Shown piece by piece: positions 17,532 through 62,153 of a stretch of DNA of 64,000 bases. The notes beneath the pieces were generated by a model. It was not told where the DNA came from. It was given only the letters and a program-made list of their open reading frames with translations, and searched no databases. The stretch spans positions 16,742,001 through 16,806,000 of the forward strand of contig CM119371.1 in NCBI GenBank assembly GCA_051294905.1, written 5' to 3'. The DNA is from Botryllus schlosseri (lineage: Eukaryota). The translations under genes and the position numbers were made by a program. The stretch's first letter is position 1; each line of letters starts with the position of its first letter.

Positions 17532-17602
17532 CTATAAATTATGTATGCTTCTTTTTAGGAGGAGACGTATGCATTTCAAAACCAAGCTATCCAGAGAGAA
17601 TT

Positions 17603-31335: not shown

Positions 31336-32539
31336 CGTGGTGTTGAATAGTCACCAACAATATCCGCACAAACGGAAACGTGGCTTGTAAGAGGATTTAC
31401 GCAGTGCGTGCGACAGACGGCGATTCGAATATCAACAATAGTCGCGTTCGCAAACTAACACTTCAAAAAGATGTGAAATATTTGTAAAATCCTACGATCG
31501 CTCACAAGATACCACTTCCGGCATATCGATCTATCACTCAATACACAACCGAAGTTGAATTGTAATTGAATGCGTAAATTTATCAACTCGACATCAAAAT
31601 TCGAAAACAACAACTTGATGCTTTATGTTCTCACTCTAATTTCATGATAAGTGTAATAAGTGCCGAATAACAGATACATCACCGGCGAGACTTGAATACC
31701 AACAAATTGTCACTTATTTCTATTCTAGCCGTAATCCTTTGTGAAGTTAACGCTTATTCAAAAAGGTGTGAAATAGTTTGCAAAACCCCGCGACCACTGA
31801 CAAGATAATGTCTCGGACATACCCATCTTTCACGACTTGGTGTCATAGCCATACCGATCGCTCACGCGGTGAAATTTTAGTAATCAGTTTGTCACAGAAC
31901 TAGATTTCACTGGTAAGATTTAATAAATACCGACTATCAGAACCATCAGTGTGGGTAACTTGAATAGCAACAAATTGTCACTTATTTCCGACGGGAAGTT
32001 CACTAAACCGCAGTACAATGCGGGATTTTGAAAAACAGATGTTCGCGAGCGCGTTTTGATATGTGTGACCCACTAACTACGTCCGCTTTGGAGACGCGAT
32101 CTGTTGTGAGGATTTCGAACGCGCACTATCGTATCGATTATTCCACTAATCCAGTCAGCACTATTACATTCAGGAGTATTCGGTATTCAGCAGCGACACG
32201 AAAAACGATCAACAAATAACTGCGTTCACAAACCAACACTTCAAAAAATGTGTGAAATAGTTTGCAAAACCCCGCGATCGCTGACAAGATAATGTCTCGG
32301 GCATAACCATTTTAGTGACTTGGTGTTAAAGACATACCGATCGCTCACAAGGTAATATTTCGGTAATTAGTTTGTCACAGAGCCGTCGCAGACGGTGATT
32401 CGAAAACCAACAATTTGACACTTTCTGGTGCTTGCTATATGTTTTGACACTTCGGAACGTGGTTGACTTTAGTTGTATGATAAGAATCATGTGAATATAC
32501 AAGTAATGTGAGTAGTATAGTCGATCGCTCGCGAACGGC

Positions 32540-33360
32540 CATTGTGGCTTATGGGTGCGGCGGTGAGGTGCCGCGAAAACTCGTGGTGGTGATGGCACCC
32601 TTTTGACCCCCCCTCTCGGCGGTGAGGTGCCATGTGTTCTTATGGATGCGGTGATGATGGCACCCTTTCGGGTATAGGCTGCGGCGGTGAGGTGCCGTGA
32701 AAACTCGTGGTGGTGATGGCACCCTTTTACACCCCCTCTCGGCGGTGAGGTGCCATGTGCTCTTATGGATGCGGTGATGATGGCACCCTTTCGGGTATAG
32801 GCTGCGGCGGTGATGTGCCTGAAAACTCGTGTTGGTGACTCGCCTTTTTTGCTATAGGCGGTGGCGGTGATGTGCCATGTATTCTTACGGGATCTGTGGT
32901 GATTCGCCATGTGTTCTTATGGATGCGGTCGTGATTCGCACTTTCAGGCATCTCTCGCGCGGTGTTGAATATGTACGAGTCACCAACAATAACCGCACAA
33001 ACGGAAACGTGGCTTGCAAGAGGATTAAGCAGTGCGACCTATATTTCGAATGACCTGCGCGCTGAATTGTTTCACAGCCAACCGCGGTGGTCGTGACTCG
33101 CCTTTTTTACTATAGGTGGTGACGGTGATTCGCCTGTCGTGTATTCTTACGGGGATCTGTGGTGACTCGCCATGTGTTCTTATGGGTGCGGTCGCATGCG
33201 GCTATTGCGTCTTATGGCGGGGGTGGTGAGCGGCTATTGATGCTAACACGAAACCCGGGGTGGCGAGCGGCACATATTTCTTATGGCGGCGGGTCTTATT
33301 TCTTATGGATGCGGTCGTGATTCGTACTTTCGGTATAGACTGCGGGCGGCATGTCGTACT
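32540..33360. repeat. E1 left subterminal array (mirror copy at about 46317-47137)
   Basis: About 123-bp higher-order repeat (GAAAACTCGTG at 32575, 32699 and 32821) with GCGGTGA(G/T)GTGCC boxes. A second, looser block lies at 33085-33360. Confidence 0.85.
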
Positions 33361-36300
33361 TTCAGCAAAAAAAGGTGTGAAATAGTTTGCCAAGTCTAGG
33401 AATCACTTGCAAGGTAATATTTTGGTATTTAGTTTACCACAGAGCCGGCGTAGACGGCGATTCGAATATCAACAATAACAACGCTCACGAATTAACACTT
33501 CAAATAGCTGTGAAATAGTTTGCAAAACCCCGCGATCGCTGACAAGATAATGTCTCGGTCATAACCATCTTTCACGACTTGATGTCATAACCATACCAAT
33601 CGCTCACAAGGTAATATTTTGATAGTTTGTCACAGAACTTGATATCGCTGGTAAGATTTAACAAGTAACGAATAACAGACCGCCAGTGTCGGTAACTTGA
33701 ATAGCGACAAATTGTCACTTATTTCCGCTCTAACCCTAATCCTTTGTGAAGTGAACGCTTATTCAAAAGGGTGTGATATAATTTTAAAATCCTACGACAC
33801 TCACAGGGTAATGCTTCAGACAAAGCGATCCCTCATGCCCGCTCACAAGGTAATATTTCCGTAATTAGTTTGTCACAGAGTCGTCGCAGACGGTGATTCG
33901 TAAACCAACAATTTGACACTTTCTGGTATGGTCGCTATATGTTTTTGACACTTTGTCCGTGTTTGACTTTAGTTGTATGATAAGAACCATGCGAATATTC
34001 AAGCAATGTATCAATTGAATGAAATGAAACTTACTACACAGCTCAAGTTGATTCGTATTTGAATGTGTTGATCCGGTACAATTCTAATTAATTTGAGAAA
34101 TCTTTTTAACGTGATCTTCTGATTCGACCGTAACCTGAATATTACTGACGCCGACTTTCAGTCACATTGAATTATTCACACATTCCACGCCGCTGTTTTA
34201 ACAGTTATAGAATCAATACCAACTATCTCTAACCCGATAATATTCAATCATTTTGGTAATTTGCCAACTTTAAATCCATTCGCGGATGTACTAAAGGTAA
34301 ATCCAAATAATCCAAAATGAAATATTTGGACTTTGACATAGTCTGAATTGAAATAGATTGACAAACATGACTACCAACTTTCACGCAGTCCCATTTCGAT
34401 ATTATATGCACATTGATTTGAAACAAGTAATGCAACATTGCAACTCTATTCGCGATCCCGCTTTCCGTTTGTCAAAGAGATATTTTAACATCTTACCATA
34501 CTCAAAAGAATTCTTCACAACATTAACAATTGTTAAAAATCTAGTTTTCACTTACTTGATTATATCACTACAACCCACAAACTTGAATTAATTCATCCTG
34601 GCTGTATTCGTATGATCGGTCTTTTTTATTCGATTGTAAAGGTCGTTACTATTCTGAAGACAAAGTATTTACTAATCGGTACATATACGATTTTACTTGG
34701 ACATATTATATTTTGAGTATACGAGATTTGAATGTCCGAACAATAACTGAGAATTAATTTATCACAATTAAATCCGTATATTACAGCGTAAAAGATATTG
34801 GGGGGTCAGCAACTCTGTACGGTCGTAGTTACAACCACATTAACTAATCTACCCAGGCAACTCGTCATGATCATTCCTGAAATCAACACAAACACGACCA
34901 CTGACTTGAGTTAACCGCGAAACAGCATCAAGTTTTAAATCCGCTTGCAGCTGACGGATTATTCGAATGCATCGATGGAGAATATTATTGAACTCGTCGG
35001 TATTGTTACTTCAACAAATTACACCGACTGCGAAAGTTAATATCGAATGGTAAGACTTGATCACATATTTGTTGATCACAGACACGACAAAAAAACATTA
35101 CCGAGATTTTATAAACTAGTCATATTACTCTACACATCTATCAATATCAAAATGCGAGTCATCCAATTTATCTACTAAAGTAACATTGCACTTTCGGATT
35201 CGGTATAGTCATACAAATTGTATTAAATCCAAAATCAAAACAAAAGGATTTTATTTTTTAGTTTATTGAAATCAAATCATTCGTCTTCGACTTGTGCTTT
35301 TCTAGATTGCACGCAACAATTCGTTACGAACGAGCTGTAACCAAAGTTAAGAATTCTTTGTGTCCACAGATATAGAAGATGAATATAGCTAACACAATCG
35401 CGAATCGATGTTTCAGAGTATTTCACGGATGTAATAAACTTGTTAGTGTCCCCTATCTAAAAAGTATGCATGCGTTCGATTTCCATACCGACTGTTGCGA
35501 TGTTTAGGATTCGTTTACAATGACCAAGAGTGAGGATTTAACATCAAAGTCGTTACTGGAGGTATTCACAACAGAGAATCGAAACATTACACAGTGTGAA
35601 AATATATCTTTGATATCAAAGCACTATCCCAAGTACACGATTAATACTCAACTCCGTTCACACTTTCTATAGAACGTGCTAAATGTAAAATATCACGAGG
35701 TTGCACTCTAAGACTTTGATCATTACAAAAGTAAATTGAATATGTCTGCTCGACGCATTCAATTCAACTAGAAATGTCTAGTGCACAACAATCGTAATAT
35801 TAAGGAAGTACTTGCTACACTGTAATTCACTTAACGTGTTTTGCATTGTTGTTCATTTGTAGTATTGATTGTTTTTGAACCCCCAAATAATAATTCCCGA
35901 CATGAAACCAAACCGCTGAAAGTCGTTACCAACACAAAGAAACACTTTGTATGATGTTTGCCAAATGTACCCTATGGTTAGGTGTACCAGAATTATTTGT
36001 GTAACACATACACCGACAATGTAATCGAAAATTTTTCCGTTGTCATTCGCTAAAGTAAATGTCATCACAATACTCTGTCACTAAAGATCTTACTTGTATC
36101 TGATTGAATCACCGATAATTAACTCGCTAAATCAAACCATAAGGAAATTTCACTCACTCATCAGATATGAAACAGCGTCGCTTAATCGGTGTAGATCGTT
36201 TTTCTAAATGCAAATCATACCGGACCAACAGAAAAACAATTTTCACTCACCTTGTAATGAAACCAAGTGTAGTGGACCTTCGTTCAATATTTTGTTTGTG

Positions 36301-37899
36301 TCAAATACTTTGCGATAAACACACTGGAGTGGTCGAGCTTTACATCAGCAGACTGTAATCTGTAAATCAAGCTTACATCCGACTTGTAACTGTATCGTTT
36401 ACCTAACCGAGTTGTATGCACAGTTTGATATTTTTTGTTATTTGGTAATTGCTGAATATACTACTTCGAAATACTCCCTTGAACGTAATTTCCATCATCG
36501 TAATAATCGAAGTACATTTGTGTCGAATTCGTAACAGCCGACTATGACATGATAAATTTTTGACAAGTTATGCTTGGAAGATTGGTTGTATATCACGAAA
36601 AATAATTACCGCTCATATTCATACTGTTATCCATTGTTCGGTATTTTCAAACGAGTAAAATTTATTACTTGAGTTACTCCGCTTAATGCAAATGTAAACA
36701 CAACCGTCTTTCAACATCACAAAGACATCGATACAAAGTATACAATCAAACGCAACAAGTTTTACTTTTGTAGGTTGTGTATGGTTATCCTGCATAACTC
36801 ATTTCTTACCAAAGCCATATGAAATATATTCATGTTACACGAAAATATTCACTCATGCTACAAACCTGTACAATGATTGGTGTTGCTTTCAAACTGTTTC
36901 GATACCTCAAGAACTTTATTGTCTGAATGGTTGTTCATGTATCATAATAATCAAGTAATTCAACACAGAACTAGTATTAACAGAAACATCAGAGTTGTTT
37001 ACACAAAAGTTTGTATGTGTACAGTATACGAATACCATGTGTAAGTCCAGCACAATTGTGGTATCCAATACGAGTTTAGTTAACACAATTTACGACACCG
37101 AGGTCGCGTCATCTTTCGTAAGACAACAAACCAAGGCTTCAGGATATGTCCATGTCATAGCAATGAATCAGCTACTCGAACAACAGAGTGCATATGTTTT
37201 CTAGTTACGGTGCTTACATCTTACACACAAATCAATCTACTTTGCTAACGAAAAGTGGTGAATCATCATATGGTTATCCTCACTAGTAAAACATACTATC
37301 ATACAAAATGGTCGTTATAGTTTGCACACTAACGGTACATCGTACAAGTAACAAGTCTCGAGCATCCGGTTATTCAAAAAACGTGAAAGTATTTCTACAC
37401 CAAGTCGTTATGTTGACGAAAGCGTATATTGTAATACCATGATCGATTTGCATTCGTTGGTCACAAACTGTCACTACTCTAAATAATTATTTTTCACTCA
37501 AACACAAAAGCATACTTGTCGCCAATCGTTTTCATCAAGTACGAGTTCAAGAAACTTACTACGACATGAATTTTTATTTTTATGTTGTGTAAATAGGTAA
37601 TAATTATTTCAAGTAACACTATATCAACATCATCGAGTTGTGCTAATAGATTTACATGCGATCTTGTGGTTTTCATCGGGACATACAGCACGAACTAACT
37701 GTAGACTCCTCTCTGTTGTACAGCTACTCGGTAATCGAAATGCATTAACATGTAAACAACGATCTTGTTTCGTCACACCAAAAATATGTTCACTGTCGCG
37801 ATACTCCGCACAAGACGTGCATAGTCTTTTCACACTCGTAATAGTATACCAACGGCAAGCGATAACGTTTAACAAGACCAACGACACTGAACCCACGAC

Positions 37900-38680
37900 G
37901 TTTACCTATGTAAAATTACCACTTTCACTTGCCAGTCCATCGTTTACCTGACTAAACATATTATTTTCCTTTGGAGATCTGATGTTTACCCAGAGTAAGA
38001 AACCTTTTTCACTTGGAAATCTATTTTTTCCTTGGCTAACAAACCTTTTTTCACTTGTAAATATGTTTTTTCCTTGGCTAACAAACCTTTTTTCACTTGG
38101 AAATCTATTTTTTCTCTGGTTAACAAACCTTTTTCCCCGGGTAACAAACCTTTTTCCCTGAGCAACAAGCCATTTTCACTTGGTGGTCCGTCGTTTACCT
38201 GAGTAAAAATATCATTTTCCTTTGGGGATCTGGCGTTTACCCGGTGTAACAATACATTTTCGCTTGGAAAAATACTTTTACCTAGAGTAACTAATCATTT
38301 TCTCCTGGGTAACAATCCCTTTTCGTCTGGAAACTATCATTTAACTGAGTACCAATACCGTTTTCACTTGGAAATACATTTTTTCCCTGGGTAACAAACC
38401 TTTTTCCCTGAGCAACAAACCATTTTCACTTGCAAATATATTTTTTCCTGGGTAACAAACCTTTTTCACTTGGAAATATATTTTTTCCCTGGGTAACAAA
38501 CCTTTTTCGCTTGGAAATATATTTTTTCCTTGAGCAACAAACCATTTTCACTTGGCGGGTCGTCGTTTACCTGACTAAAAATATCATTTTCCTTTGGAGA
38601 TCTGGCGTTTACCCAGTGTAACAATACATTTTCTCTTGGTCATCTAGCTTTTCCTAGAGTAACAAAACCATTTTCATTTT
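37900..38680. repeat. About 41-bp satellite in the E1 left arm (mirror at about 40997-41777)
   Basis: Unit similar to CCTTTTTCACTTGGAAATATATTTTTTCTCTGGGTAACAAA. Confidence 0.9.
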
Positions 38681-39397
38681 GAAATCTGACAAACACACCT
38701 GACAATTTGATAATTTTGTATATTGTTACAACGAACAGTGACGGAAATATACACAGACTACCGGTTTCAGAGTACACCCCATCGGTCGTATCACGTCAAT
38801 ATCATCGGTTAACCACATACAATATACTCTTGTACACCGAAATGCACGCTTTGGAAAATTGGACAATAGGCTGCGATAGTTCTGTGATGTCCGGGTTCGT
38901 GCTTTAGATTTTCCAGAGTCAAAATGTCTGAATAAAACACCTCCTCGATGACGGTTGGTATGTGGATAACGGTGTTCGGAAAACGGATGGATTTATGTCG
39001 CCCATCGCGATAACAATTCCTGGTCGAGTTTTCCTCCGGCATGTTTGCTATATTGTGTCTTTATTGGTCAATGTATGTCTCGACATTCAGTTTGAAATCG
39101 GAAATGATAAAGTATGTAACCGGATCCGGATATCAACTCTGAATCGATAAACCAATGAACAATATTCAAAGTAAACATGTCACACCCTGTGTTTCCACGA
39201 AAAATACCATCCAGACATACGTCGCGCTTGTTTGCCCACATCAGTATACGCGCAAATGGAGGTGTGTGACATTGCATGCAATGTGTTGGTATACAGACAT
39301 CGATCCACAGACATTATCATAGCCGGTAGTTTTGATGTAGATCGAATGTCACTCGATAACAATACCAATAAGCCACATTGCAATGACTCTGAGTCCG

Positions 39398-40279
39398 TCT
39401 GAGCATGACATACAGACACACAAACATGGAACCGTAACATGGGTTATTCGCACGACGGTGAAAGTGAACTGCACAGAATATACCAATAGAGCGTTCACAG
39501 ACATTCACCGTGTACAATCATATAACCAGATTTTTGCTGGATATGTACGAAACCGATAAATCGATACATTTCTGTTCCTTCGACGTCAATAATACAAGCG
39601 TCGTTCCAATGCATCGCTCGAATGTAAGGTTCTTCAGGTGTAAAACCTATGTCAAATAACACCAAAGTGTGCCTTCTGTGTTTTATTATTTCCACCGATG
39701 CATCTTGCCTGTGTCGTAACACTATGGTGCAGGGACTCGAAAAACGGTACTTTGTAAAACGGATTGACATGACCAACTGAAACGACGTCGATAGCCTTGT
39801 GGTGATGATAGTTTCAAAATGTTACCGATCTCTTGTGGCGATGACCGTTTCGAAATGGCACCGGGCGAAATGGACCCTTACGATGATGTGTTTTTTGATT
39901 GCGTGTGAAATCACGAGGTAGTGTTCTATTGTGGTGTACGATTGCAGTCTTCACATAGACACACCTTATTGGATCACAGTATCAGTCCGAGATTTGCACG
40001 ATATTTATCTGGAGTCGTTATGTGGGAGTAGCGACATCCATGCATCGTGACTGAAAGACTGATCGCAATCATTTCGAGCACCGTACTTCGATAGTTCACA
40101 TTGGTAAAACGCTGCAGCAGAAAACTTCGGTGTCGACAACACGACAGATATCGATCGATGTATCCAATTGGTCTGGGTGATCTGTCCGGAGATAGGGTCA
40201 TGACTATCTTGCAATGTAACAACACGATAACACCATCGAGTAAATCAGCGAACGGTGTCGAAATATCGATGTAATAGCG
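39398..40279 (-). other. E1 unique spacer, 882 bp, with decayed ORF-like sequence
   Basis: Homologous to the E2 and E3 spacers. ORF fragments 39495-39776 and 39974-40294 on the minus strand. Confidence 0.85.
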
Positions 40280-43200
40280 CGGACTCAGAGTCATTGCAAT
40301 GTGGCTTATTGGTATTGTTATCGAGTGACATTCGATCTACATCAAAACTACCGGCTATGATAATGTCTGTGGATCGATGTCTGTATACCAACACATTGCA
40401 TGCAATGTCACACACCTCCATTTGCGCGTATACTGATGTGGGCAAACAAGCGCGACGTATGTCTGGATGGTATTTTTCGTGGAAACACAGGGTGTGACAT
40501 GTTTACTTTGAATATTGTTCATTGGTTTATCGATTCAGAGTTGATATCCGGATCCGGTTACATACTTTATCATTTCCGATTTCAAACTGAATGTCGAGAC
40601 ATACATTGACCAATAAAGACACAATATAGCAAACATGCCGGAGGAAAACTCGACCAGGAATTGTTATCGCGATGGGCGACATAAATCCATCCGTTTTCCG
40701 AACACCGTTATCCACATACCAACCGTCATCGAGGAGGTGTTTTATTCAGACATTTTGACTCTGGAAAATCTAAAGCACGAACCCGGACATCACAGAACTA
40801 TCGCAGCCTATTGTCCAATTTTCCAAAGCGTGCATTTCGGTGTACAAGAGTATATTGTATGTGGTTAACCGATGATATTGACGTGATACGACCGATGGGG
40901 TGTACTCTGAAACCGGTAGTCTGTGTATATTTCCGTCACTGTTCGTTGTAACAATATACAAAATTATCAAATTGTCAGGTGTGTTTGTCAGATTTCAAAA
41001 TGAAAATGGTTTTGTTACTCTAGGAAAAGCTAGATGACCAAGAGAAAATGTATTGTTACACTGGGTAAACGCCAGATCTCCAAAGGAAAATGATATTTTT
41101 AGTCAGGTAAACGACGACCCGCCAAGTGAAAATGGTTTGTTGCTCAAGGAAAAAATATATTTCCAAGCGAAAAAGGTTTGTTACCCAGGGAAAAAATATA
41201 TTTCCAAGTGAAAAAGGTTTGTTACCCAGGAAAAAATATATTTGCAAGTGAAAATGGTTTGTTGCTCAGGGAAAAAGGTTTGTTACCCAGGGAAAAAATG
41301 TATTTCCAAGTGAAAACGGTATTGGTACTCAGTTAAATGATAGTTTCCAGACGAAAAGGGATTGTTACCCAGGAGAAAATGATTAGTTACTCTAGGTAAA
41401 AGTATTTTTCCAAGCGAAAATGTATTGTTACACCGGGTAAACGCCAGATCCCCAAAGGAAAATGATATTTTTACTCAGGTAAACGACGGACCACCAAGTG
41501 AAAATGGCTTGTTGCTCAGGGAAAAAGGTTTGTTACCCGGGGAAAAAGGTTTGTTAACCAGAGAAAAAATAGATTTCCAAGTGAAAAAAGGTTTGTTAGC
41601 CAAGGAAAAAACATATTTACAAGTGAAAAAAGGTTTGTTAGCCAAGGAAAAAATAGATTTCCAAGTGAAAAAGGTTTCTTACTCTGGGTAAACATCAGAT
41701 CTCCAAAGGAAAATAATATGTTTAGTCAGGTAAACGATGGACTGGCAAGTGAAAGTGGTAATTTTACATAGGTAAACGTCGTGGGTTCAGTGTCGTTGGT
41801 CTTGTTAAACGTTATCGCTTGCCGTTGGTATACTATTACGAGTGTGAAAAGACTATGCACGTCTTGTGCGGAGTATCGCGACAGTGAACATATTTTTGGT
41901 GTGACGAAACAAGATCGTTGTTTACATGTTAATGCATTTCGATTACCGAGTAGCTGTACAACAGAGAGGAGTCTACAGTTAGTTCGTGCTGTATGTCCCG
42001 ATGAAAACCACAAGATCGCATGTAAATCTATTAGCACAACTCGATGATGTTGATATAGTGTTACTTGAAATAATTATTACCTATTTACACAACATAAAAA
42101 TAAAAATTCATGTCGTAGTAAGTTTCTTGAACTCGTACTTGATGAAAACGATTGGCGACAAGTATGCTTTTGTGTTTGAGTGAAAAATAATTATTTAGAG
42201 TAGTGACAGTTTGTGACCAACGAATGCAAATCGATCATGGTATTACAATATACGCTTTCGTCAACATAACGACTTGGTGTAGAAATACTTTCACGTTTTT
42301 TGAATAACCGGATGCTCGAGACTTGTTACTTGTACGATGTACCGTTAGTGTGCAAACTATAACGACCATTTTGTATGATAGTATGTTTTACTAGTGAGGA
42401 TAACCATATGATGATTCACCACTTTTCGTTAGCAAAGTAGATTGATTTGTGTGTAAGATGTAAGCACCGTAACTAGAAAACATATGCACTCTGTTGTTCG
42501 AGTAGCTGATTCATTGCTATGACATGGACATATCCTGAAGCCTTGGTTTGTTGTCTTACGAAAGATGACGCGACCTCGGTGTCGTAAATTGTGTTAACTA
42601 AACTCGTATTGGATACCACAATTGTGCTGGACTTACACATGGTATTCGTATACTATACACATACAAACTTTTGTGTAAACAACTCTGATGTTTCTGTTAA
42701 TACTAGTTCTGTGTTGAATTACTTGATTATTATGATACATGAACAACCATTCAGACAATAAAGTTCTTGAGGTATCGAAACAGTTTGAAAGCAACACCAA
42801 TCATTGTACAGGTTTGTAGCATGAGTGAATATTTTCGTGTAACATGAATATATTTCATATGGCTTTGGTAAGAAATGAGTTATGCAGGATAACCATACAC
42901 AACCTACAAAAGTAAAACTTGTTGCGTTTGATTGTATACTTTGTATCGATGTCTTTGTGATGTTGAAAGACGGTTGTGTTTACATTTGCATTAAGCGGAG
43001 TAACTCAAGTAATAAATTTTACTCGTTTGAAAATACCGAACAATGGATAACAGTATGAATATGAGCGGTAATTATTTTTCGTGATATACAACCAATCTTC
43101 CAAGCATAACTTGTCAAAAATTTATCATGTCATAGTCGGCTGTTACGAATTCGACACAAATGTACTTCGATTATTACGATGATGGAAATTACGTTCAAGG

Positions 43201-46200
43201 GAGTATTTCGAAGTAGTATATTCAGCAATTACCAAATAACAAAAAATATCAAACTGTGCATACAACTCGGTTAGGTAAACGATACAGTTACAAGTCGGAT
43301 GTAAGCTTGATTTACAGATTACAGTCTGCTGATGTAAAGCTCGACCACTCCAGTGTGTTTATCGCAAAGTATTTGACACAAACAAAATATTGAACGAAGG
43401 TCCACTACACTTGGTTTCATTACAAGGTGAGTGAAAATTGTTTTTCTGTTGGTCCGGTATGATTTGCATTTAGAAAAACGATCTACACCGATTAAGCGAC
43501 GCTGTTTCATATCTGATGAGTGAGTGAAATTTCCTTATGGTTTGATTTAGCGAGTTAATTATCGGTGATTCAATCAGATACAAGTAAGATCTTTAGTGAC
43601 AGAGTATTGTGATGACATTTACTTTAGCGAATGACAACGGAAAAATTTTCGATTACATTGTCGGTGTATGTGTTACACAAATAATTCTGGTACACCTAAC
43701 CATAGGGTACATTTGGCAAACATCATACAAAGTGTTTCTTTGTGTTGGTAACGACTTTCAGCGGTTTGGTTTCATGTCGGGAATTATTATTTGGGGGTTC
43801 AAAAACAATCAATACTACAAATGAACAACAATGCAAAACACGTTAAGTGAATTACAGTGTAGCAAGTACTTCCTTAATATTACGATTGTTGTGCACTAGA
43901 CATTTCTAGTTGAATTGAATGCGTCGAGCAGACATATTCAATTTACTTTTGTAATGATCAAAGTCTTAGAGTGCAACCTCGTGATATTTTACATTTAGCA
44001 CGTTCTATAGAAAGTGTGAACGGAGTTGAGTATTAATCGTGTACTTGGGATAGTGCTTTGATATCAAAGATATATTTTCACACTGTGTAATGTTTCGATT
44101 CTCTGTTGTGAATACCTCCAGTAACGACTTTGATGTTAAATCCTCACTCTTGGTCATTGTAAACGAATCCTAAACATCGCAACAGTCGGTATGGAAATCG
44201 AACGCATGCATACTTTTTAGATAGGGGACACTAACAAGTTTATTACATCCGTGAAATACTCTGAAACATCGATTCGCGATTGTGTTAGCTATATTCATCT
44301 TCTATATCTGTGGACACAAAGAATTCTTAACTTTGGTTACAGCTCGTTCGTAACGAATTGTTGCGTGCAATCTAGAAAAGCACAAGTCGAAGACGAATGA
44401 TTTGATTTCAATAAACTAAAAAATAAAATCCTTTTGTTTTGATTTTGGATTTAATACAATTTGTATGACTATACCGAATCCGAAAGTGCAATGTTACTTT
44501 AGTAGAAAAATTGGATGACTCGCATTTTGATATTGATAGATGTGTAGAGTAATATGACTAGTTTATAAAATCTCGGTAATGTTTTTTTGTCGTGTCTGTG
44601 ATCAACAAATATGTGATCAAGTCTTACCATTCGATATTAACTTTCGCAGTCGGTGTAATTTGTTGAAGTAACAATACCGACGAGTTCAATAATATTCTCC
44701 ATCGATGCATTCGAATAATCCGTCAGCTGCAAGCGGATTTAAAACTTGATGCTGTTTCGCGGTTAACTCAAGTCAGTGGTCGTGTTTGTGTTGATTTCAG
44801 GAATGATCATGACGAGTTGCCTGGGTAGATTAGTTAATGTGGTTGTAACTACGACCGTACAGAGTTGCTGACCCCCCAATATCTTTTACGCTGTAATATA
44901 CGGATTTAATTGTGATAAATTAATTCTCAGTTATTGTTCGGACATTCAAATCTCGTATACTCAAAATATAATATGTCCAAGTAAAATCGTATATGTACCG
45001 ATTAGTAAATACTTTGTCTTCAGAATAGTAACGACCTTTACAATCGAATAAAAAAGACCGATCATACGAATACAGCCAGGATGAATTAATTCAAGTTTGT
45101 GGGTTGTAGTGATATAATCAAGTAAGTGAAAACTAGATTTTTAACAATTGTTAATGTTGTGAAGAATTCTTTTGAGTATGGTAAGATGTTAAAATATCTC
45201 TTTGACAAACGGAAAGCGGGATCGCGAATAGAGTTGCAATGTTGCATTACTTGTTTCAAATCAATGTGCATATAATATCGAAATGGGACTGCGTGAAAGT
45301 TGGTAGTCATGTTTGTCAATCTATTTCAATTCAGACTATGTCAAAGTCCAAATATTTCATTTTGGATTATTTGGATTTACCTTTAGTACATCCGCGAATG
45401 GATTTAAAGTTGGCAAATTACCAAAATGATTGAATATTATCGGGTTAGAGATAGTTGGTATTGATTCTATAACTGTTAAAACAGCGGCGTGGAATGTGTG
45501 AATAATTCAATGTGACTGAAAGTCGGCGTCAGTAATATTCAGGTTACGGTCGAATCAGAAGATCACGTTAAAAAGATTTCTCAAATTAATTAGAATTGTA
45601 CCGGATCAACACATTCAAATACGAATCAACTTGAGCTGTGTAGTAAGTTTCATTTCATTCAATTGATACATTGCTTGAATATTCACATGGTTCTTATCAT
45701 ACAACTAAAGTCAAACACGGACAAAGTGTCAAAAACATATAGCGACCATACCAGAAAGTGTCAAATTGTTGGTTTACGAATCACCGTCTGCGACGACTCT
45801 GTGACAAACTAATTACGGAAATATTACCTTGTGAGCGGGCATGAGGGATCGCTTTGTCTGAAGCATTACCCTGTGAGTGTCGTAGGATTTTAAAATTATA
45901 TCACACCCTTTTGAATAAGCGTTCACTTCACAAAGGATTAGGGTTAGAGCGGAAATAAGTGACAATTTGTCGCTATTCAAGTTACCGACACTGGCGGTCT
46001 GTTATTCGTTACTTGTTAAATCTTACCAGCGATATCAAGTTCTGTGACAAACTATCAAAATATTACCTTGTGAGCGATTGGTATGGTTATGACATCAAGT
46101 CGTGAAAGATGGTTATGACCGAGACATTATCTTGTCAGCGATCGCGGGGTTTTGCAAACTATTTCACAGCTATTTGAAGTGTTAATTCGTGAGCGTTGTT

Positions 46201-49200
46201 ATTGTTGATATTCGAATCGCCGTCTACGCCGGCTCTGTGGTAAACTAAATACCAAAATATTACCTTGCAAGTGATTCCTAGACTTGGCAAACTATTTCAC
46301 ACCTTTTTTTGCTGAAAGTACGACATGCCGCCCGCAGTCTATACCGAAAGTACGAATCACGACCGCATCCATAAGAAATAAGACCCGCCGCCATAAGAAA
46401 TATGTGCCGCTCGCCACCCCGGGTTTCGTGTTAGCATCAATAGCCGCTCACCACCCCCGCCATAAGACGCAATAGCCGCATGCGACCGCACCCATAAGAA
46501 CACATGGCGAGTCACCACAGATCCCCGTAAGAATACACGACAGGCGAATCACCGTCACCACCTATAGTAAAAAAGGCGAGTCACGACCACCGCGGTTGGC
46601 TGTGAAACAATTCAGCGCGCAGGTCATTCGAAATATAGGTCGCACTGCTTAATCCTCTTGCAAGCCACGTTTCCGTTTGTGCGGTTATTGTTGGTGACTC
46701 GTACATATTCAACACCGCGCGAGAGATGCCTGAAAGTGCGAATCACGACCGCATCCATAAGAACACATGGCGAATCACCACAGATCCCGTAAGAATACAT
46801 GGCACATCACCGCCACCGCCTATAGCAAAAAAGGCGAGTCACCAACACGAGTTTTCAGGCACATCACCGCCGCAGCCTATACCCGAAAGGGTGCCATCAT
46901 CACCGCATCCATAAGAGCACATGGCACCTCACCGCCGAGAGGGGGTGTAAAAGGGTGCCATCACCACCACGAGTTTTCACGGCACCTCACCGCCGCAGCC
47001 TATACCCGAAAGGGTGCCATCATCACCGCATCCATAAGAACACATGGCACCTCACCGCCGAGAGGGGGGGTCAAAAGGGTGCCATCACCACCACGAGTTT
47101 TCGCGGCACCTCACCGCCGCACCCATAAGCCACAATGGCCGTTCGCGAGCGATCGACTATACTACTAATGTGTCAATTTGACAACTTGAAATGAAACTTA
47201 CTACACAAACCAAGTTGATTCGTATCTGAATGGGTTAATTCGGTACAATTCTAATTATTTTGAGAAATCTTTTGATTCGACCATAACCTGAATATTACTG
47301 ACGCCGACTTTCAGCCGCATCGAATTATTCGCACATTCTGCACCACTGTTTTCACACTTATAGAATCAATACCAACTATAACTCTACAAGAATCAAGAAT
47401 CACAAGTATGTTCATTACACAGTTATTGTCTTTATTAACTTGAAATCAAACTCTTAACAAAAACACACATCTTATCACTCGTCAACTCTATCATGAAAAT
47501 CCTCGAGTCCTTATCATCAAAAATGTTATAGCGCGGCGTCGGAACCCATTCGTGGGATGTACTAAAAATAAATCCAGATAATCCAAAATGAAATATTTGG
47601 ACTTTGACATAGTGTGAATTGAAATAGGATTGACAAACATGACTACCAACTTTGATCCAGCCACATTTCAAGATTATACTTTGAAACAAGTAATGTTACA
47701 TTACAACTCTATTCACGATCCTGCTTTCCGTTTATCAAATAGAGTTTCAGTAAATACTATCGCGATATTTTAATGTGTTACTACACACAATAGAATCAAT
47801 CAATGAAATAGCACCTGTTGTAAATATTTCTAACTTGACAACCACTTGTGCGTACCGCGATCGACTTGCGACGCGATGAGTTAAATCGGAATTTTTCAAT
47901 CTATTTGTCGAAACCTTGAACAAACTATCAGGTTATTTTTTGTTGTAATCGAGTGAACGGAAATAGTATTACGTCTCAACATTTTAGCATCTTCCCATGA
48001 ACAAAAGAGTAAAATACAAAAAACCTTGTCAATTCAATCCGTTTGTAACTTACCCAACCAACTCAACAGTATCCTTACGAAAAGTAGACAAGACTACGCG
48101 AGTAATCACTACAATCCAAAATCCATAGCAAGTTCGGTTGTATTCATATCCCTACGACGCGTCTTTTGTTTTTCAACTGTAAAAGTCGTTACTATTTTGC
48201 AAGACAAAGTAATTACTACTTGATATATTTTATAAACCAAAGTAAATACTACTCGGTGTGTGGTTTGAGATTAACATATTACATTTGAGTATACCGGATT
48301 TGAATGCCTGACCAACGTAGTTGAGAATTCATTTCTTACAATCAAACGCCGGTTTTACATTGAAAGGTATCATACTGTAAACATAAGGATTGACACATTG
48401 ATTTGATATATGAGATTTTGTAATGCTCGACCACGACTTGATTATTAAAGTATTCACGATAATTAGACCCGATGTTGTGGTAAAGGTTATTAGAAAATAT
48501 CACTTTTGGCATCGAGTACCAGTCGAAGTGGGTGAACAATAACACCGAAAATGATAAATGCGTTTCGTGCTACTATTGATACAAGCTCATTTCTATCAGG
48601 TGAAATAAACGCCATCACAAAACTCAAAGCATGCAAAGGTCTTGATTGATATGAATTTCGATTTGTGTCTTATGATTTTAGAAATATTATGATTCGTTAA
48701 ACCAAAGTCGTATGTCCGATTATTAATTGATTGGAAACTTGATCACGTACCTCGATCATTACAGAAGATTATAACCCCATTGTCCGACAATCTTTTACAA
48801 AAGGATCGAAACCAAGTAACCCAAAGTCGTTGCCGTCGCATAAACAATTTGTACGACGTTTGATAATTGTACCCTATACGTTGGTGTACTAGAGATATTT
48901 GTAAAACACACTCTGGTAAAGAAATCGAAAAGATATCCTACACCTAAATCTGATAAAACCATTTTGCACTTTTTGTTCGTCAGTAGTATCCATTTTAATT
49001 TTCCCATTTCCTCTCGTCAAAGTAGATGTAATCATAGTCACTAAAGAACTTACTTGGATGTGTTTGAATTCTAGACATAGTTATGATTTACTCAACGCAA
49101 GACCCAAGAACAACCGTAGTTAACAACCGTGCACACATATCCAAAATATCGCACACTCCGCTATTCCTAAAGTACAAACACCCGATACAAAATATCACTT

Positions 49201-51315: not shown

Positions 51316-52054
51316 TGAAATCTGACAACCACACCGACAATTTGATATTTTTGTATTTTCTTACAGCGAACAGCGACAAAATATACACCAACAACGACTC
51401 CGATACATTTGTCTAATCAAATATTCACTTGTGTTGGTGCATCCCATCAAAATCGTCGGTTACCCACATGCAATGCGCTCTTGTACACAGAAATGCATGT
51501 TCTGGAAAATTGGACAATAGACTTCGATAGTTCTGTGATGTCCGGGTTCGTGCTTTGGATTTTCCAGAGTCAAAATGTCTGAATAAAACACCTCCTTGAC
51601 GATGGTTGGTATGTGGATAACGGTGTTCGGAAAACGGTTGGATTTATGTCACCCATCGCGATAACAATTCCAGGTCGAGTTTTCCCCCGCATGTTTACTA
51701 TATTGTGTCTTTATTGGTCAATGCATGTCTCGACATTCAGTTTGAAATCGGAAACCCTGATAAAGTATGTAACCGGATCCGGATATCAACTCTGAATCGA
51801 TAAACCAATGAACAATATTCAAAGTAAACATGTTACACCCTGTGTTTCCACGAAAAAATACCATCCAGACATACGTCGCGCTTGTTTGCCCACATCAGTA
51901 TACGCGTAAATGGAGGTGTGTGACATTGCATGCAATGTGTTGGTATACAAACATCGATCCACAGACATTATCATAGCCGGTAATTTTGATGCAGATCGAA
52001 TGTCATCACACCCGATAACAATACCAATAAGCCACATTGCAATGACTCTGAGTC

Positions 52055-52962
52055 AATCTGAAGTATGACATATAGACACACAAACATGGAACCTTGACAT
52101 GGTTATTCGCACGACGGTGAAAGTAAACTGTACAACATATACCAATAGAGCGTTCACAGTCAAATATGCGAACCATGCACAATCATATACCCAGATTTTT
52201 GTTGGATATGTACAAATCCGATAAATCGATACATTTCTTTCCCTTCGACGTCAATAATACAAAGGTCATTCCAATTCGTCGCTCGAATGTGAGGTTCGTC
52301 TGGTGTAAAATCCATGTCAAATAACACCAAAGTGTGCTTTCCGTGTTTTATTATTTCCACCGTCGCTTCTTGTCTGTGTCGTAACACTATGGTGCAGGGA
52401 CTTGAAAAACGGTGGATTGTGAAACGGATTGACATGACCAACAGAATCGAGGTCAATAGACTTGTGACGATGTCGTTTCAAAATGCTCCGATATGACGAG
52501 CGCAACCTCGATCTCTTGTGGTGACGACCGTTTCGAAATGTTACCGGACGAGCTAGACCCTTACGAAAGTGTGTTTTATGATTGTGTGTGAAATCACGAG
52601 GTAGTGTTCTATTGTGGTGTACGATTGCAGTCTTCATTCCACAGAAACACACCTTATTGGATCACAGTATCAGTCCGAGATTTGCATAATCACTGTTCAC
52701 GATATTTGTCTGGAGTCGTTATGTGGGAGTAGCGACATCCATTGATCGTGACTGAAAGACTGGTCGCAATCATTTCGAGCACCGTACTTCGATAGTTCAC
52801 CATGGTCAAACGCTGCTGCAGAAAACTTCGGTGTGGACAACACATTGATCGATGTATCCAATTGATCTGGGTGGTCCGTCTACAGATAGGGTCATGACTA
52901 TCTTGCGATAACACCATCGAATAAATCAGTGAACGGTGTCGATATATCGATGTAATAGCGCG
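52055..52962 (-). other. E2 unique spacer, 908 bp
   Basis: Homologous to the E1 spacer, same orientation. Confidence 0.85.
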
Positions 52963-55900
52963 GACTCAGAGTCATTGCAATGTGGCTTATTGGTATTGTT
53001 ATCGGGTGTGATGACATTCGATCTGCATCAAAATTACCGGCTATGATAATGTCTGTGGATCGATGTTTGTATACCAACACATTGCATGCAATGTCACACA
53101 CCTCCATTTACGCGTATACTGATGTGGGCAAACAAGCGCGACGTATGTCTGGATGGTATTTTTTCGTGGAAACACAGGGTGTAACATGTTTACTTTGAAT
53201 ATTGTTCATTGGTTTATCGATTCAGAGTTGATATCCGGATCCGGTTACATACTTTATCAGGGTTTCCGATTTCAAACTGAATGTCGAGACATGCATTGAC
53301 CAATAAAGACACAATATAGTAAACATGCGGGGGAAAACTCGACCTGGAATTGTTATCGCGATGGGTGACATAAATCCAACCGTTTTCCGAACACCGTTAT
53401 CCACATACCAACCATCGTCAAGGAGGTGTTTTATTCAGACATTTTGACTCTGGAAAATCCAAAGCACGAACCCGGACATCACAGAACTATCGAAGTCTAT
53501 TGTCCAATTTTCCAGAACATGCATTTCTGTGTACAAGAGCGCATTGCATGTGGGTAACCGACGATTTTGATGGGATGCACCAACACAAGTGAATATTTGA
53601 TTAGACAAATGTATCGGAGTCGTTGTTGGTGTATATTTTGTCGCTGTTCGCTGTAAGAAAATACAAAAATATCAAATTGTCGGTGTGGTTGTCAGATTTC
53701 AAAATGAAAATGGTTTTGTTACTCTAGGAAAAGCTAGATGACCAAGAGAAAATGTATTGTTACACTGGGTAAACGCCAGATCCCCAAAGGAAAATGATAT
53801 TTTTACTCAGGTAAACGACGGATCACCAAGTGAAAAAGGTTTGTAACCCAGGGAAAAATATATTTCCAAGCGAAAAAGATTTGTTACCCAGCGAAAAAAA
53901 TATATTTCCAAGTGAAAAAGGTTTGTTACCCAGGATAAAATATATTTGCAAGTGAAAAAGGTTTGTTGCTCAGGGAAAAAGGTTTGTTACCCGCGGAAAA
54001 AATATATTTCCAAGTGAAAAAGGTTTGTTACCCAGAGAAAAAATATATTTCCAAGTGAAAAAGGTTTGTTACCCAGAGAAAAAATATATTTCCAAGTGAA
54101 AAAGGTTTGTTAACCAGAGAAAAAATATATTCCCAAGTGAAAAAGGTTTATTACCAAGAGAAAAAATATATTTCCAAGTGAAAAAGGTTTGTTACTCAGA
54201 GAAAAAATATATTTCCAAGTGAAAAAGGTTTGTTACTCAGAGAAAAAATATATTTCCAAGTGAAAAAGGCTTATTACCAAGAGAAAAAATATATTTCCAA
54301 GTGGAAAAGGTTTGTTACCAAGAGAAAAAATATATTTCCAAATGAAAAAGGTTTGTTATCCAGGGCAAAAATAGATTTCCAAGTGAAAAGGGGTTTGTTA
54401 TTCAGGCCAAAAATAGATTTCCAAGTGAAAAGGGGATTGTTACACTGGGTAAACGATAAATCTCCAAAGGACAATGGTATTTTAGTTAGGTAACGGTGGA
54501 CCTCCAAGTGAAAATGATAATTTTACACAGGTAAACGTCAGTTGTCCAAACCAGAATGATATTTTTACTTGGATAGGTATCTTGTGTTCAACGCCGGTAG
54601 TGTGATTGGTCTTGTTAAACGTAGTTACCGAGTTGTACAATTATGAAGGGGCGGAAAATGAAATTGCTATTATGATCGTCAGAAGATTGTTGTATGTAGA
54701 TTTGACAGTAACCCTATCATTCGCATATGACAAACACAATCATGGCCATTAACTAACTTGCTCGGTCTAGATCAATGCAAAAGAGATGATTCGTTTTTTG
54801 AAACCGTAGCGAAGACCACATGTAAATCGATGTGATAGACTTCTATCTCCTTACAGTCAGTCGTGTCGTGTCCATTTTAATACGGGGCCCACGGGTATGA
54901 CATGCACACACTAACGCCGTGAACAGAAATCGATGATTTTGATTAATAAAAATATTTCTTGACTACATCGGAATGTCTATGTTGTAGAAAGTAAATACTT
55001 TTATGGTGTTGTGTGTTTAATGAAAGCGATTGGTTACAAGTATGTGTTGGAGAAAGAAAATTTATTTTTCTGTATGTGACGAAATGAAAATAGATTCGTG
55101 GTTTTAATTGGATTGCGCTGTTTAATGTACGTTTCAACAGGTAGACTTGACACTGAACAACAATTCGACCCACAAAGCATATTCGTTGTATGATTTGTCA
55201 CTGGTGTGTAAAGGGTTAGGAATATTTTGAATGATAATATCTACTAGCTGTTTTGTTGTGAGAGCGATCATGTGATGACTCAGCACTTTTCGTTAGCAAA
55301 GTAGATTGATCTATGTGAAAGATGTAAGAACCGTGGCTAGAAACATATGTACTTTGTTGTTGGGGAACTGCTATGGTGTTGACATAACCCTCTGGAAGTG
55401 AGTATGCTTTTCTTTCACGAAAGTTTACGTGGCTCCGTTGTAATAAATTTGTGTTGACTAAACTCGAATGGATACTGCAATTGTGCTGGACTTACACATG
55501 GTATTCGCATACTGTACACATACAAACTTTTGTGTAAACAACTCTGATGTTTCTGTTAGTACTAGTTCTGTGTTGAACTATTTGATTATTAAGATACATG
55601 AACACCCATTCAGACAATAAAGGTCTTGTGATATCGAAACAGTTTGTAGAGTCTAACCAACCATTCTTTAGTTTCGTAATGTGAGAATATCGAGTAAAGT
55701 TAATTACTTAGTGCGATGTTAATATCCTTCGTACTTTTGTAAGAGTTGTGGGATAACATACAAAGTAACTAATTGACACAAACAAAATGGTGATATTGTG
55801 AAGATGATGCCGCAACAAGTGATATTTTGTATCGGGTGTTTGTACTTTAGGAATAGCGGAGTGTGCGATATTTTGGATATGTGTGCACGGTTGTTAACTA

Positions 55901-58900: not shown

Positions 58901-59999
58901 TTTGCGAACGCGACTATTGTTGATATTCGAATCGCCGTCTGTCGCACGCACTGCGTAAATCCTCTTACAAGCCACGTTTCCGTTTGTGCGGATATTGTTG
59001 GTGACTATTCAACACCACGCGAGAGATGGTTGAAAGTGCGAATCACGACCGCACCCATAAGAACACATGGCGCATCACCACATATCTCGTAAGAATACAT
59101 GACACATCACCAGAGATACCATAAGAAACAATGGCACATCACCAGAGATCCCATAAGAACCATTGGCACATCACGAGCGATAGGGGGTCTGAAAGGGTAC
59201 CATCACCAACACGAGTTTTCATGGCGCATCACCGCCGCAGCCCATAGCAAAAAAGGCGAGTCACGACCACGAGTTTTCAGGCACATCACCGCCGCTGCCT
59301 ATACCCAAAAGTACGAATCACGACCCCGAGTTTTCAATACGAGTCACCACCACAGCCTATACCCAAAAGTACGAATCACGACCGCGTCCATAAGAACCCA
59401 TTACGAATCGCGGCCCCGAGGGGGGTCTGAAAGTACGAGTCGCCACCCCCGGTTTTCAATACGAATCGCCACCCCGCCATAAGAGCCCCATGCAAAAATT
59501 AGCCGTTCGCGAGCGATCTACTTAACTACTAATACCATGATCGATTTACATTCGTTGGTCACAAACTGTCACTACTCTAAATAATTATTTTTCACTCAAA
59601 CACAAAAACATACTTGTCGCCAATCGTTTTCATCAAGTACGAGTTCAAGAAACTTACTACGACATGAATTTTTATTTTTATGTTGTGTAAATAGGTAATA
59701 ATTTATTCAAGTAACACTATATCAACATCATCGAGTTGTGCTAATAGATTTACATGCGGTCTTGTGGTTTTCATCGGGACATACAGCACGAACTAACTGT
59801 AGACTCCTCTCTGTTGTACAGCTACTCGGTAATCGAAATGCATTAACATGTAAACAACGATCTTGTTTCGTCACACCAAAAATATGTTCACTGTCGCGAT
59901 ACTCCGCACAAGACGTGCATAGCCTTTGCACACTCGTAATAGTATACCAACGTCAAGCGATAACGTTTAACAAGACCAACGACACTGAACCCACGACGT

Positions 60000-60490
60000 T
60001 TACCTATGTAAAATTACCACTTTCACTTGCCAGTCCATCGTTTACCTGACTAAACATATTATTTTCCTTTGGAGATCTGACGTTTACCCGGAGTAAGAAA
60101 CCATTTTCACTTGTAAATATATTTTTTCCTTGGCTAACAAACCTTTTTTCACTTGTAAATATATTTTTTCTCTGGTTAACAAACCTTTTTCACTTGGAAA
60201 TATATTTTTTCTCTGGTTAACAAACCTTTTTCACTTGGAAATATATTTTTCCCTGGGTAACAAACCTTTTTTCACTTGGAAATATATTTTTTCTCTGGGT
60301 AACAAACCTTTTTCACTTGGGAATATATTTTTTCCCCGATCAACAAACCTTTTTCCCTTGGAAATATATTTTTTCCCCGAGCAACAAACCATTTTCACTG
60401 AGCAACAAACCCTTTTCTCCCCAGGCAACAAACCCTTTTCGTTTGGAAAACTATCATTTACCTGAGTACCAATACCATTTTCGTTTTGAA
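60000..60490. repeat. About 41-bp satellite in the E3 left arm (mirror at about 62899-63389)
   Basis: Same unit, shorter array. Confidence 0.9.
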
Positions 60491-61235
60491 AACTGACAAC
60501 TACACCGGTCAATTTGATATTTTTTGTATATTGTTACAACAGACAGTGACAAAATATACACCAACAACGACTCCGATACATTTGTGTAATCAAATATTCA
60601 CTTGCTCTGATGCATCCCATCAAAATCATTGGTTACTCACATACAATAACAATGTGCTGTTGTACATCGACATGTATGTTTTCGGAATTGGCGAATAAAG
60701 GGGTTTCTGATATGTCCGTGATGTCCGGGTTCGTGCTTTGGATTTTCCAGAGTCAAAATGTCTGAATAAAACACCTCCTCGACGATGGTTGGTATGTGGA
60801 TAACGGTGTTCGGAAAACGGTTGAATTTATGTCACCCATCGCGATAACAATTCCAGGTCGAGTTTTCCCCGCATGTTTACTATATTGTGTCTTTATTGGT
60901 CATGTATGTCTCAACATTCAGTTTGAAATCGGAAACTCTGATAAAGTACGTAACCGGATCCGGATATCAACTCTGAATCGATAAACCAATGAACAATATT
61001 CAAAGTAAACATGTTACACCCTGTGTTTCCACGAAAAAATACCATCCAGACATACGTCGCGCTTGTTTGCCCACACCAGTATATGCGTAAATGGAGGTGT
61101 GTGACATTGCATGCAATGTGTTGGTATACAAACATCGATCCACAGACATTATCATAGCCGGTAGTTTTGATGTAGATCGAATGTCATCACACCCGATAAC
61201 AATACCAATAAGCCACATTGCAATGACTCTGAGTC

Positions 61236-62153
61236 CGCGCTATGACATCGATATCTCGACACCGTTCACTGATTTATTCGATGGTGTTATCGCGTTGTAA
61301 CATTACAAGATAGTCATGACCCTATCTCCGGACAGACCACCCAGATCAATTGGATACATCGGTCAATATCCGTCGTGTTGTCGACACCGAAGTTTTCTGC
61401 TGCAGCGTTTGACCAATGTGAACTATCGAAGTACGGGTGCTCGAAATGATTGCGATCAGTCTTTCATTCACGATGCATGGATATCGCTACTCCCACATAA
61501 CGACTCCAAATAAATATCGTGCAAATCTCGGACTGATACTGTGATCCAATAAGGTGTGTTTCTGTGGAATGAAGACTGCAATCGTACACCACAATAGAAC
61601 ACTACCTCGTGATTTCACACGCAAGCATATTACACACTTTCGTAAGGGTCCAGTTCGTCCGGCGACATTTCGAAACGGTCATCGCCACAGGAGATCGAGG
61701 TTGGTCTCGTCATATCGGAGCATTTTGAAACTGTCATCACCACAAGGTTATTGACGTCGATTCTGTTGGTCATGTCAATCCGTTTCACAATCCACCGATT
61801 TTCAACTCCCCGCACCATAGTGTTACGACACAGACAAGAAGCGTCGGTGGAAATAATAAAACACGGAAAGCACACTTTGGTGTTATTTGACATGGATTTT
61901 ACACCCGACGAACCTTACATTCGAGCGATGCATTGGAATGACGCTTGTATTATTGACGTAGAAGGAACAGAAATGTATCGATTTATTGGTTTCGTACATA
62001 TCCAACAAAAACCAGGGTATGTGATTGTGCGTGGTTCGCATATTCGACTGTGAACGCTCTATTGGTATATGCTGTATAGTTCACTTTCACCGTCGTGCGA
62101 ATAACCCATGTTACGGTTCCATGTTTGTGTGTCTGTATGTCATGCTTCAGATT
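61236..62153 (+). other. E3 unique spacer, 918 bp, opposite orientation to E1 and E2
   Basis: ORF 61751..62053 (+) corresponds to 39495..39776 (-) and 52160..52456 (-). Confidence 0.85.

Follow-up and report, generated by a model that had tools for sequence, protein, structure and literature searches.

The window analyzed here is a 64,000-nucleotide stretch of the Botryllus schlosseri genome (assembly GCA_051294905.1, contig CM119371.1, forward-strand positions 16,742,001 to 16,806,000), which contains three palindromic elements, E1, E2, and E3, each made of two inverted arms around a loop. A first-pass annotation of the letters alone had missed that the three are nested and not side by side, with E1 (32511-47166) inserted in the left arm of E2 and E2 (30825-59530) inserted in the left arm of E3, so that across 25877-64000 each family member lies in the left arm of the next. 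The outer left arm of E3 runs left of 30825, to at least 25877; its outer end and target duplication were looked for and not found. The parts, in window coordinates, are as follows.

32505-32510 and 47167-47172: target duplication of E1, AATGTG.
32511-39395, plus strand: left arm of E1, up to the standard arm/loop edge, starting with AGTAGT; its outer part is homologous to the terminal repeat of coding Polintons.
39398-40279, no strand: single-copy loop of E1, 882 bp, mosaic between copies.
40282-47166, minus strand: right arm of E1, with the mirror motif at 40282-40301, ending with ACTACT.
30825-59530, no strand: E2, split by E1, with junction motifs at 52035-52054 and 52963-52982, loop at 52055-52962, and target duplication AATACC.
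59531-64000, no strand: inner part of E3, split by E2, with junction motifs at 61216-61235 and 62154-62173 and loop at 61236-62153.

Within an element the arms are close to identical, with 3 mismatches in 6,885 bp for E1 and 8 in 6,573 bp for E2. All six arm ends in the window carry CATTGCAATG (at 39376, 40292, 52035, 52973, 61216, and 62164; 6 matches versus 0.17 expected), and GACTCTGAGTC overlaps it there. The annotation had described the arm ends as overlapping palindromes of 10 and 11 bp, and this was confirmed for all six; it was also correct that the arms of E2 and E3 end at GAGTC and that those of E1 match for 2 bp more (CG, where E2 and E3 have AA). These six matches are one founding event, multiply copied. 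The features around the left junction of E1 are the following.

39269-39284, no strand: 16-bp palindrome sharing the CATTGC half-site and lying ~100 bp outward of the junction; the homologous position in sister subfamilies lacks it.
39376-39385, no strand: the 10-bp palindrome CATTGCAATG.
39385-39395, no strand: the 11-bp palindrome GACTC-T-GAGTC, ending at the standard arm/loop edge, in the zone of raised arm-to-arm mismatch.
39396-39403, plus strand: CG replacing AA with a linked 1-bp deletion, the mark of a 26-copy sublineage, lengthening the arm match by 2 bp.
39396-39441, plus strand: start of the loop here, still arm in sister subfamilies C and D (edge at ~39441).

The same junction recurs throughout the genome. 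The junction 20-mer gave 948 genome matches versus 1 control match, or ~470 elements if the matches are paired. Pattern listings and a set of 107 loci were the basis of the tabulation. An anchor placed upstream of the motif picked out 763 arm ends; in a manual tally of the first 100, every one led into this motif, with 2 substitutions or fewer in 98 and a small indel in the other 2 (edges lying outward past the anchor would escape this tally). Complete pairs among these 100 ends had the standard edge in 41 of 44 cases, the CG form in 2, and a large shift in 1. In addition, two public runs contain contigs that span the junction in its AA form; the same runs did not show the CG form. The excess of matches over the control, together with the bridging contigs, excludes a chimera of assembly or reads, as the annotation had argued, and its proposal of a single founder is borne out for the family by the uniformity of the anchored ends and of the pairs. 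The median divergence between the arms of one copy was 0.2% (43 elements), and between copies the arms had diverged by 3% and the loops by 8% (16 elements). We concluded that the shared junction is inherited from a common ancestor and that descent is sufficient to explain the sharing.

E1 and E2 start with AGTAGT, end with ACTACT, and are flanked by 6-bp target duplications (AATGTG and AATACC), which the flanking T also permits to be read as asymmetric 7-bp duplications. The Maverick signature, in the sections of a published survey drawn on here, consists of 5'-(AGT)2//(ACT)2-3' ends and a 6-bp target duplication (PMC8097293). The terminus pattern had 372 matches in the 495-Mb genome versus 0 in controls, and at least two of the pairs formed from the first 100 listed matches enclose polymerase genes (C7:7.03 Mb and C5:0.89 Mb); these two copies have 6-bp duplications (ATCGTA and AACACC), terminal repeats of ~590-620 bp, and the Polinton gene set. 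The arm ends of the palindromic elements are 69-92% alike, in patches, to the terminal repeats of coding Polintons, and the arms of E2 and E3 retain 3'-terminal remnants of the Polinton protease and major capsid genes, those of the E2 left arm as follows.

~47307-47495 and 48140-48212: protease and capsid remnants.

Frames for a polymerase, an integrase, an ATPase, or an intact capsid or protease were absent from the elements, and the stretches examined in three coding Polinton copies had no sequence match to the junction or the loop. In the polymerase search, 113 of 236 candidates were scored; the PF04665 search led to a coding Polinton, whose stretches had no DNA match to the elements, and the PF03175 search gave no polymerase, its control being likewise silent. 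Since the elements have Polinton ends and duplications and lack the core genes, they are, as judged from their sequence, apparently non-autonomous palindromic Polinton/Maverick derivatives and not autonomous members, ~13-15 kb long with 6-7-kb arms and a 0.9-kb loop.

The near identity of the arms breaks down at the edge. In 28 elements chosen by loop sequence, 7 of 273 positions in the final 10 bp of the arm were mismatched, compared with 162 of 38,567 positions farther from the edge (odds ratio 6.2, p = 2e-4). Some of the changes involved are recurrent. One of them, an A-to-G substitution located 4 bp away from the edge, breaks the 11-mer; it is present in 11 elements, all of which have the same loop end starting with T, and was found in one arm in 7 (two of them mutual duplicates), on both sides in 2, and in rearranged copies in 2. 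Similarly, a T-to-C change that breaks the 10-mer is present in 14 elements, in both arms of 5, in one arm of 8, and with the partner unseen in 1. One-sided marks are common to copies on different contigs and must therefore have been inherited through transposition. Three mismatches ~32 bp out in L038-L040 at first seemed to be shared as well but proved to be three different changes.

The position of the edge also changes, and the movable boundary supposed in the annotation was substantiated by shifts of +2, +25, and ~+500 bp and by a relic of ~+78 bp. The +25 shift, in L014, lies at a shared GACAC, and the ~+500 shift, in L070, is accompanied by templated filler with two new 8-bp palindromes, which indicates that repair can write palindromes at a junction. 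The L014 and L070 shifts, as well as an apparent crossover in L016/L050, all lie within one 25-bp stretch around GACAC, at loop positions 8-32 counted from the AA side; this stretch is possibly a preferred switch point. In L080 (C15:20504820-20506100), 4 bp of loop are followed directly by the reversed arm, the loop being lost, and in L016, L047, L049, and L050 the loop is a mosaic of different lineages, with both arms belonging to a single lineage. Small inherited shifts, rare large shifts, and slower divergence of the arms, the hallmarks of inverted-repeat border drift, were thus all found.

The +2 shift is the one that the annotation had noticed as a 2-bp creep in E1. The extension is real but is not specific to E1, as the exact CG form is carried by 26 copies on 16 contigs (~5% of the family), and it is accompanied by a 1-bp deletion a few bases further in that the annotation had not reported. 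A tree of 48 rows included 22 with CG, of which 20 fell in one young clade (98/89 support) and the remaining 2 were mosaics. (L014 was in the wrong orientation in this tree and was corrected in the later mosaic and divergence tests; L003, L011, L052, L057, and L074, for which no partner motif was found, and the rearranged L070 and L073 were left out of the tree and the selection tests.) In all four CG-bearing mosaics that were checked, the mark goes with E1-type arms and not with the loop. That the mark is found in 26 copies, mostly in one clade, implies one ancestral event rather than an event within E1. The annotation's idea that CG had been copied from the other junction is likely and stops short of proof, because one in nine random two-base changes would match CG and a second step is required for the deletion; on balance, we think that the mark probably arose as one templated copying event in the ancestor of the 26 copies. 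An ordinary complex mutation that matched the other side by accident would involve two bases only, would need to have happened just once, and would cover the linked deletion, for which the other arm does not account. But the mark is located exactly at the edge, it moves with the arm, and cross-copying is known 4 bp away and at +25, all of which makes an accidental match doubtful.

Through the loop gene described below, we found sister subfamilies in the same genome. Two of these, C and D, share the arm and the loop gene, and in 6 of 6 copies their edge lies ~47-48 bp further in than in the present family; no palindrome of at least 8 bp lies near these edges, and the homologous stretch lacks the motif, as it also does in family B. 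Junctions bearing no relation to the motif, which the annotation had set against its own proposal, were thus absent within the family but were found across the sister subfamilies. The start of the loop on the AA side matches the end of the sisters' arm (p = 3e-4 in 3 of 3), compared with p = 0.05-0.48 for the CG side, and we therefore regard the AA side as the old continuity. At the position of the C edge, family B has ~78 bp that belong to the opposite end of the loop (p = 0.001), the relic of an advance. In this family (L091-L095 and L102-L106) both arms carry the loop gene, as inverted pairs separated by 3-17 kb and facing inward or outward, and the centers contain decayed inner repeats (72-84%). 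These centers are complex; 4 of 5 gave scorable inverted-repeat edges, and none of those four has a palindrome of at least 8 bp. Finally, the last 60 bp of the arm align poorly with the sisters in the forward direction, a control window aligning well (p = 3e-4), and when reversed they give a modest alignment that ends at GAGTC. It is probable from these alignments that the double palindrome is the scar of a local inversion that set the present edge.

Starting from the observed descent, symmetry gradient, one-sided inheritance with cross-copying, edge shifts, different edges in the sisters, and loop mosaicism, we consider it likely that the edge is the inherited inner border of the arm, drifting by arm-to-arm copying, and that the palindromes are a scar and not a signal. 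A coding Polinton would supply the protein-primed polymerase and the integrase in trans, and during copying the displaced strand would pair with itself into a long panhandle, in which one arm could be corrected against, or recopied from, the other. Correction would halt at the first unpaired stretch, which would be the edge, and the edge would ebb and flow as a consequence. The double palindrome would have arisen together with this family's edge, through a short local inversion or a templated patch of a nonpalindromic stretch, leaving the inner ~47 bp outside the arm.

A number of points weigh against this account. In a set of elements picked by the motif, the loss of symmetry was weaker (4/320 versus 40/9,156, p = 0.06, over 20 bp), and the copies with CAACG in one arm could be products of CpG decay after insertion. 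Both palindromes are intact in ~95% of arm ends, which fits recent descent and also weak selection. The sample was partial, consisting of 100 of the 763 anchored ends, 6 sister copies, and 3 coding Polintons of at least 113 polymerase matches. The inversion scar is the weakest step, the older state among the subfamilies not being established: the reverse-strand alignments gave p = 0.038, 0.025, 0.26, 0.024, 0.10, and 0.024 in six non-independent tests, one forward-strand test also gave p = 0.036, and the reverse match is partly built in because a palindrome matches both strands. A palindrome of at least 10 bp ends within 3 bp at just 1.3% of positions, and for a double palindrome to end precisely at the edge would be a nominally improbable coincidence, but this is a single case noticed post hoc. 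Lastly, no extrachromosomal or single-stranded form was seen, and helper-dependent mobilization is inferred only.

The annotation had offered two explanations for the junction, both of which give the palindromes an active role. One was that a preexisting palindrome formed a hairpin and so set off the template switch from which the family began. The 11-mer does end at the edge, and the family does have one founder, but the site is not "hairpin-prone," as local folding was no better than that of shuffled sequences (z-scores of -0.36 to +0.45; -1.3 kcal/mol for the 20-mer). Moreover, the homologous stretch is nonpalindromic in B, C, and D, the two recent large shifts took place at GACAC, 21-25 bp into the loop and away from the motif, and neither the edges of C and D nor the four in the B centers have a palindrome of at least 8 bp, which makes the hairpin quite improbable. 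The E1 arm plus loop (7,769 bp) contains 25 palindromes of at least 10 bp, the shuffled mean being 20.4, and one overlapping pair versus 0.86 expected. The other explanation, a site-specific recombination or resolution site, draws on the dyad symmetry present at both edges in inverted orientation. Such sites have long dyad binding arms around a 6- to 8-bp core, whereas the half-sites of the motif measure merely 5 bp, around centers of 0 and 1 bp, and long dyad arms are lacking. Symmetry is also lower in the motif than anywhere else in the arm, broken versions of the motif are inherited, and neither the sister subfamilies nor the coding Polinton stretches scanned at C7 contain it. No recombinase frame was found within the element (a genome-wide search for one was not made), and the crossovers between copies are located inside the loop. 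A recombination site is accordingly hard to credit at all. A degenerate direct repeat of ~107 bp spanning the junction was considered and dismissed (p = 0.10-0.64).

The palindromes might instead be protein-binding sites gained by the family, the bound protein stalling branch migration or regulating the gene and thereby pinning the edge. The AA side reads TGAGTCA, which we take to be an AP-1-like site; the placement of the palindromes is nominally unlikely by chance, a 16-bp palindrome lies nearby, the CATTGC half-site recurs 100 bp away, the loop gene is real and has a few RNA reads, and conservation is higher in the proximal arm than in the loop. Yet broken versions of the motif have been inherited, the CG sublineage reached 26 copies without TGAGTCA, and the edges of the sister subfamilies are stable without the motif, so that a binding site is unlikely to be what holds the edge in place. 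The main alternative would replace only one step of our account, with the arms being kept alike by host gene conversion after insertion. L070 resembles host break repair, and human Y palindromes also have arms less diverged than their spacers, according to the part of that study used here (PMC3723533). But the insertions in one arm (E1 in E2 and E2 in E3) have no mirror copy, the arms of the innermost element are the most alike (3 mismatches versus 8 in E2), and the one-sided marks on different contigs were passed on by transposition; we regard host conversion as somewhat unlikely. The claim of a special palindromic breakpoint thus mostly dissolves into common descent, and a special site is unlikely. 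What is worth keeping is the drifting edge and the selected loop gene, whose features in the window are as follows.

39060-39065, minus strand: sole AATAAA/ATTAAA in the 800 bp that follow the stop codon of the loop gene in E1, located in the arm.
39495-39770, minus strand: orphan gene of 91 amino acids in the E1 loop, under purifying selection.
52160-52435, minus strand: loop gene in E2.
61772-62053, plus strand: loop gene in E3.

The loop frame, of 91-93 amino acids, is intact in 38 of 48 loops. None of the 21 shared indels falls within the gene, which makes up 31% of the length (p = 4e-4), and the shared changes in the gene comprise 24 silent and 39 replacement changes (ratio of replacement to silent change, pN/pS, 0.42, p = 0.001; 1.0-1.2 in shifted frames), with 14, 17, and 32 changes at the three codon positions in counts that leave out 7 of 48 gapped copies. 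Within the gene, no difference was seen between shared and singleton changes (p = 0.45). In the sister subfamilies the loop protein has the same length and ~66% identity. We concluded that the loop gene is under purifying selection, which may limit edge movement without loss, although B has the gene in both arms. The protein matched no Pfam family, its Atlas matches were weak, with recognition below threshold, and the searches returned only matches from its own family plus a spurious WD40 protein; the structural model (predicted local distance difference test score, pLDDT, of 52) gave no viral fold match at E<=0.001, and the coding Polinton stretches held no match. Support from RNA is thin: none of the listed holders of the sequence is recorded as RNA, and RNA run X23 contained 37 reads, only 3 of them at >=99%, for which DNA carry-over is possible. 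These reads map to the gene and, on grounds of symmetry, to the stretch immediately preceding its AATAAA (window 40368-40595 and 39627-39797), on the gene's strand given the usual mate convention. Because the AATAAA is located in the arm, a transcript would cross the junction. The E1 loop as a whole was also considered as a decayed palindrome, and the symmetry test was not significant overall. With an almost-all-stem strand that could pair with itself, one selected loop gene, and loop swapping, the elements could conceivably be true polintovirus satellites, which we propose only tentatively.

Other features of the locus and of its relatives deserve mention. The threefold nesting suggests a preference for self-insertion or an insertion hot spot. 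A Polinton-type terminus lies within both arms of E3 (window 26420; C1:16810257, L107), and the inverted repeat extends at least 540 bp past it at 100% identity, implying that an inner end has been mirrored. The arms contain a tandem array of 41- to 42-bp units that varies in length (window 37964-38688 and mirror), and a subterminal repeat of 57-123 bp is common to the arms and the helper's terminal repeat (32556-32939 and mirror). Outside the elements, a 733-amino-acid frame at 17504-19705 (plus strand) resembles by eye the reverse transcriptase of a long interspersed nuclear element (LINE), and two frames at 5758-7694 (plus strand) resemble a DNA transposase. Elsewhere, L062-L063 (C11:4.51 Mb) is a coding Polinton of another family with accessory frames, which we take by eye to encode a death domain, a BIR domain, a caspase-like protein, and a ubiquitin-conjugating enzyme.

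Among known systems, Foldback (FB, Mutator-related) elements have kilobase inverted arms, internal tandem repeats around the loop, and a 9- to 10-bp target duplication; membership in that group was rejected, because the present elements have a 6-bp duplication and Polinton-homologous ends. Non-autonomous Polintons as such are reportedly listed by Kapitonov and Jurka in 2006, and palindromic derivatives may already be among those or in Repbase. Within a literature search whose scope lay outside Repbase, the founding Polinton paper, and supplements, we found no account of palindromic non-autonomous Polintons or of their edges. The hundreds of copies in this genome record both the leveling of the arms and its failure and thereby constrain the copying of Polintons, so far argued mainly from sequence anatomy. 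To our knowledge, the panhandle ("racket") intermediate of Polinton replication, long proposed, has never been observed; if our account is true, the gradient of errors at the edge would be its genomic footprint, readable in hundreds of copies. Likewise, seemingly "gene-less" palindromes can carry a selected loop gene, and long-read palindromes of this kind are real.

The elements resemble Polintons/Mavericks in their end motif, 6-bp duplication, and similar total length and in terminal repeats homologous to those of coding Polintons in the same genome (PMC8097293 and PMC6431247, in the sections used). They differ in having inverted repeats of 6-7 kb, versus 46-1,447 bp in the portion of the survey drawn on (PMC8097293), and in having no core genes and one orphan gene in a 0.9-kb loop. 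The palindromes described for a tunicate assembly, as far as the relevant part of their description goes, are gene-scale blocks and were set aside as a different kind (PMC12448946). The inverted-repeat borders of plastids and linear organelle genomes, in the excerpts considered, likewise undergo small conversion shifts and rare large break-repair shifts that are inherited by lineage (PMC2275221 and PMC3673629), but here the borders belong to a nuclear mobile element with hundreds of copies per genome, and loops are also swapped. Human Y palindrome P6, in the part of the study cited, has arms >99% alike, less diverged than the spacer, and stable arm-spacer borders, but it is a fixed host locus, nonmobile and ten times larger (PMC3723533). 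A further parallel is the "racket" model of Polinton self-synthesis, in the second-hand summary of PMC4196379, in which a single strand closed by inverted repeats would explain why leveling of the arms fades at the loop. That model, in the summary, concerns the short terminal repeats of coding elements, whereas here the stem would make up ~93% of the strand and its edge would record the errors of copying.

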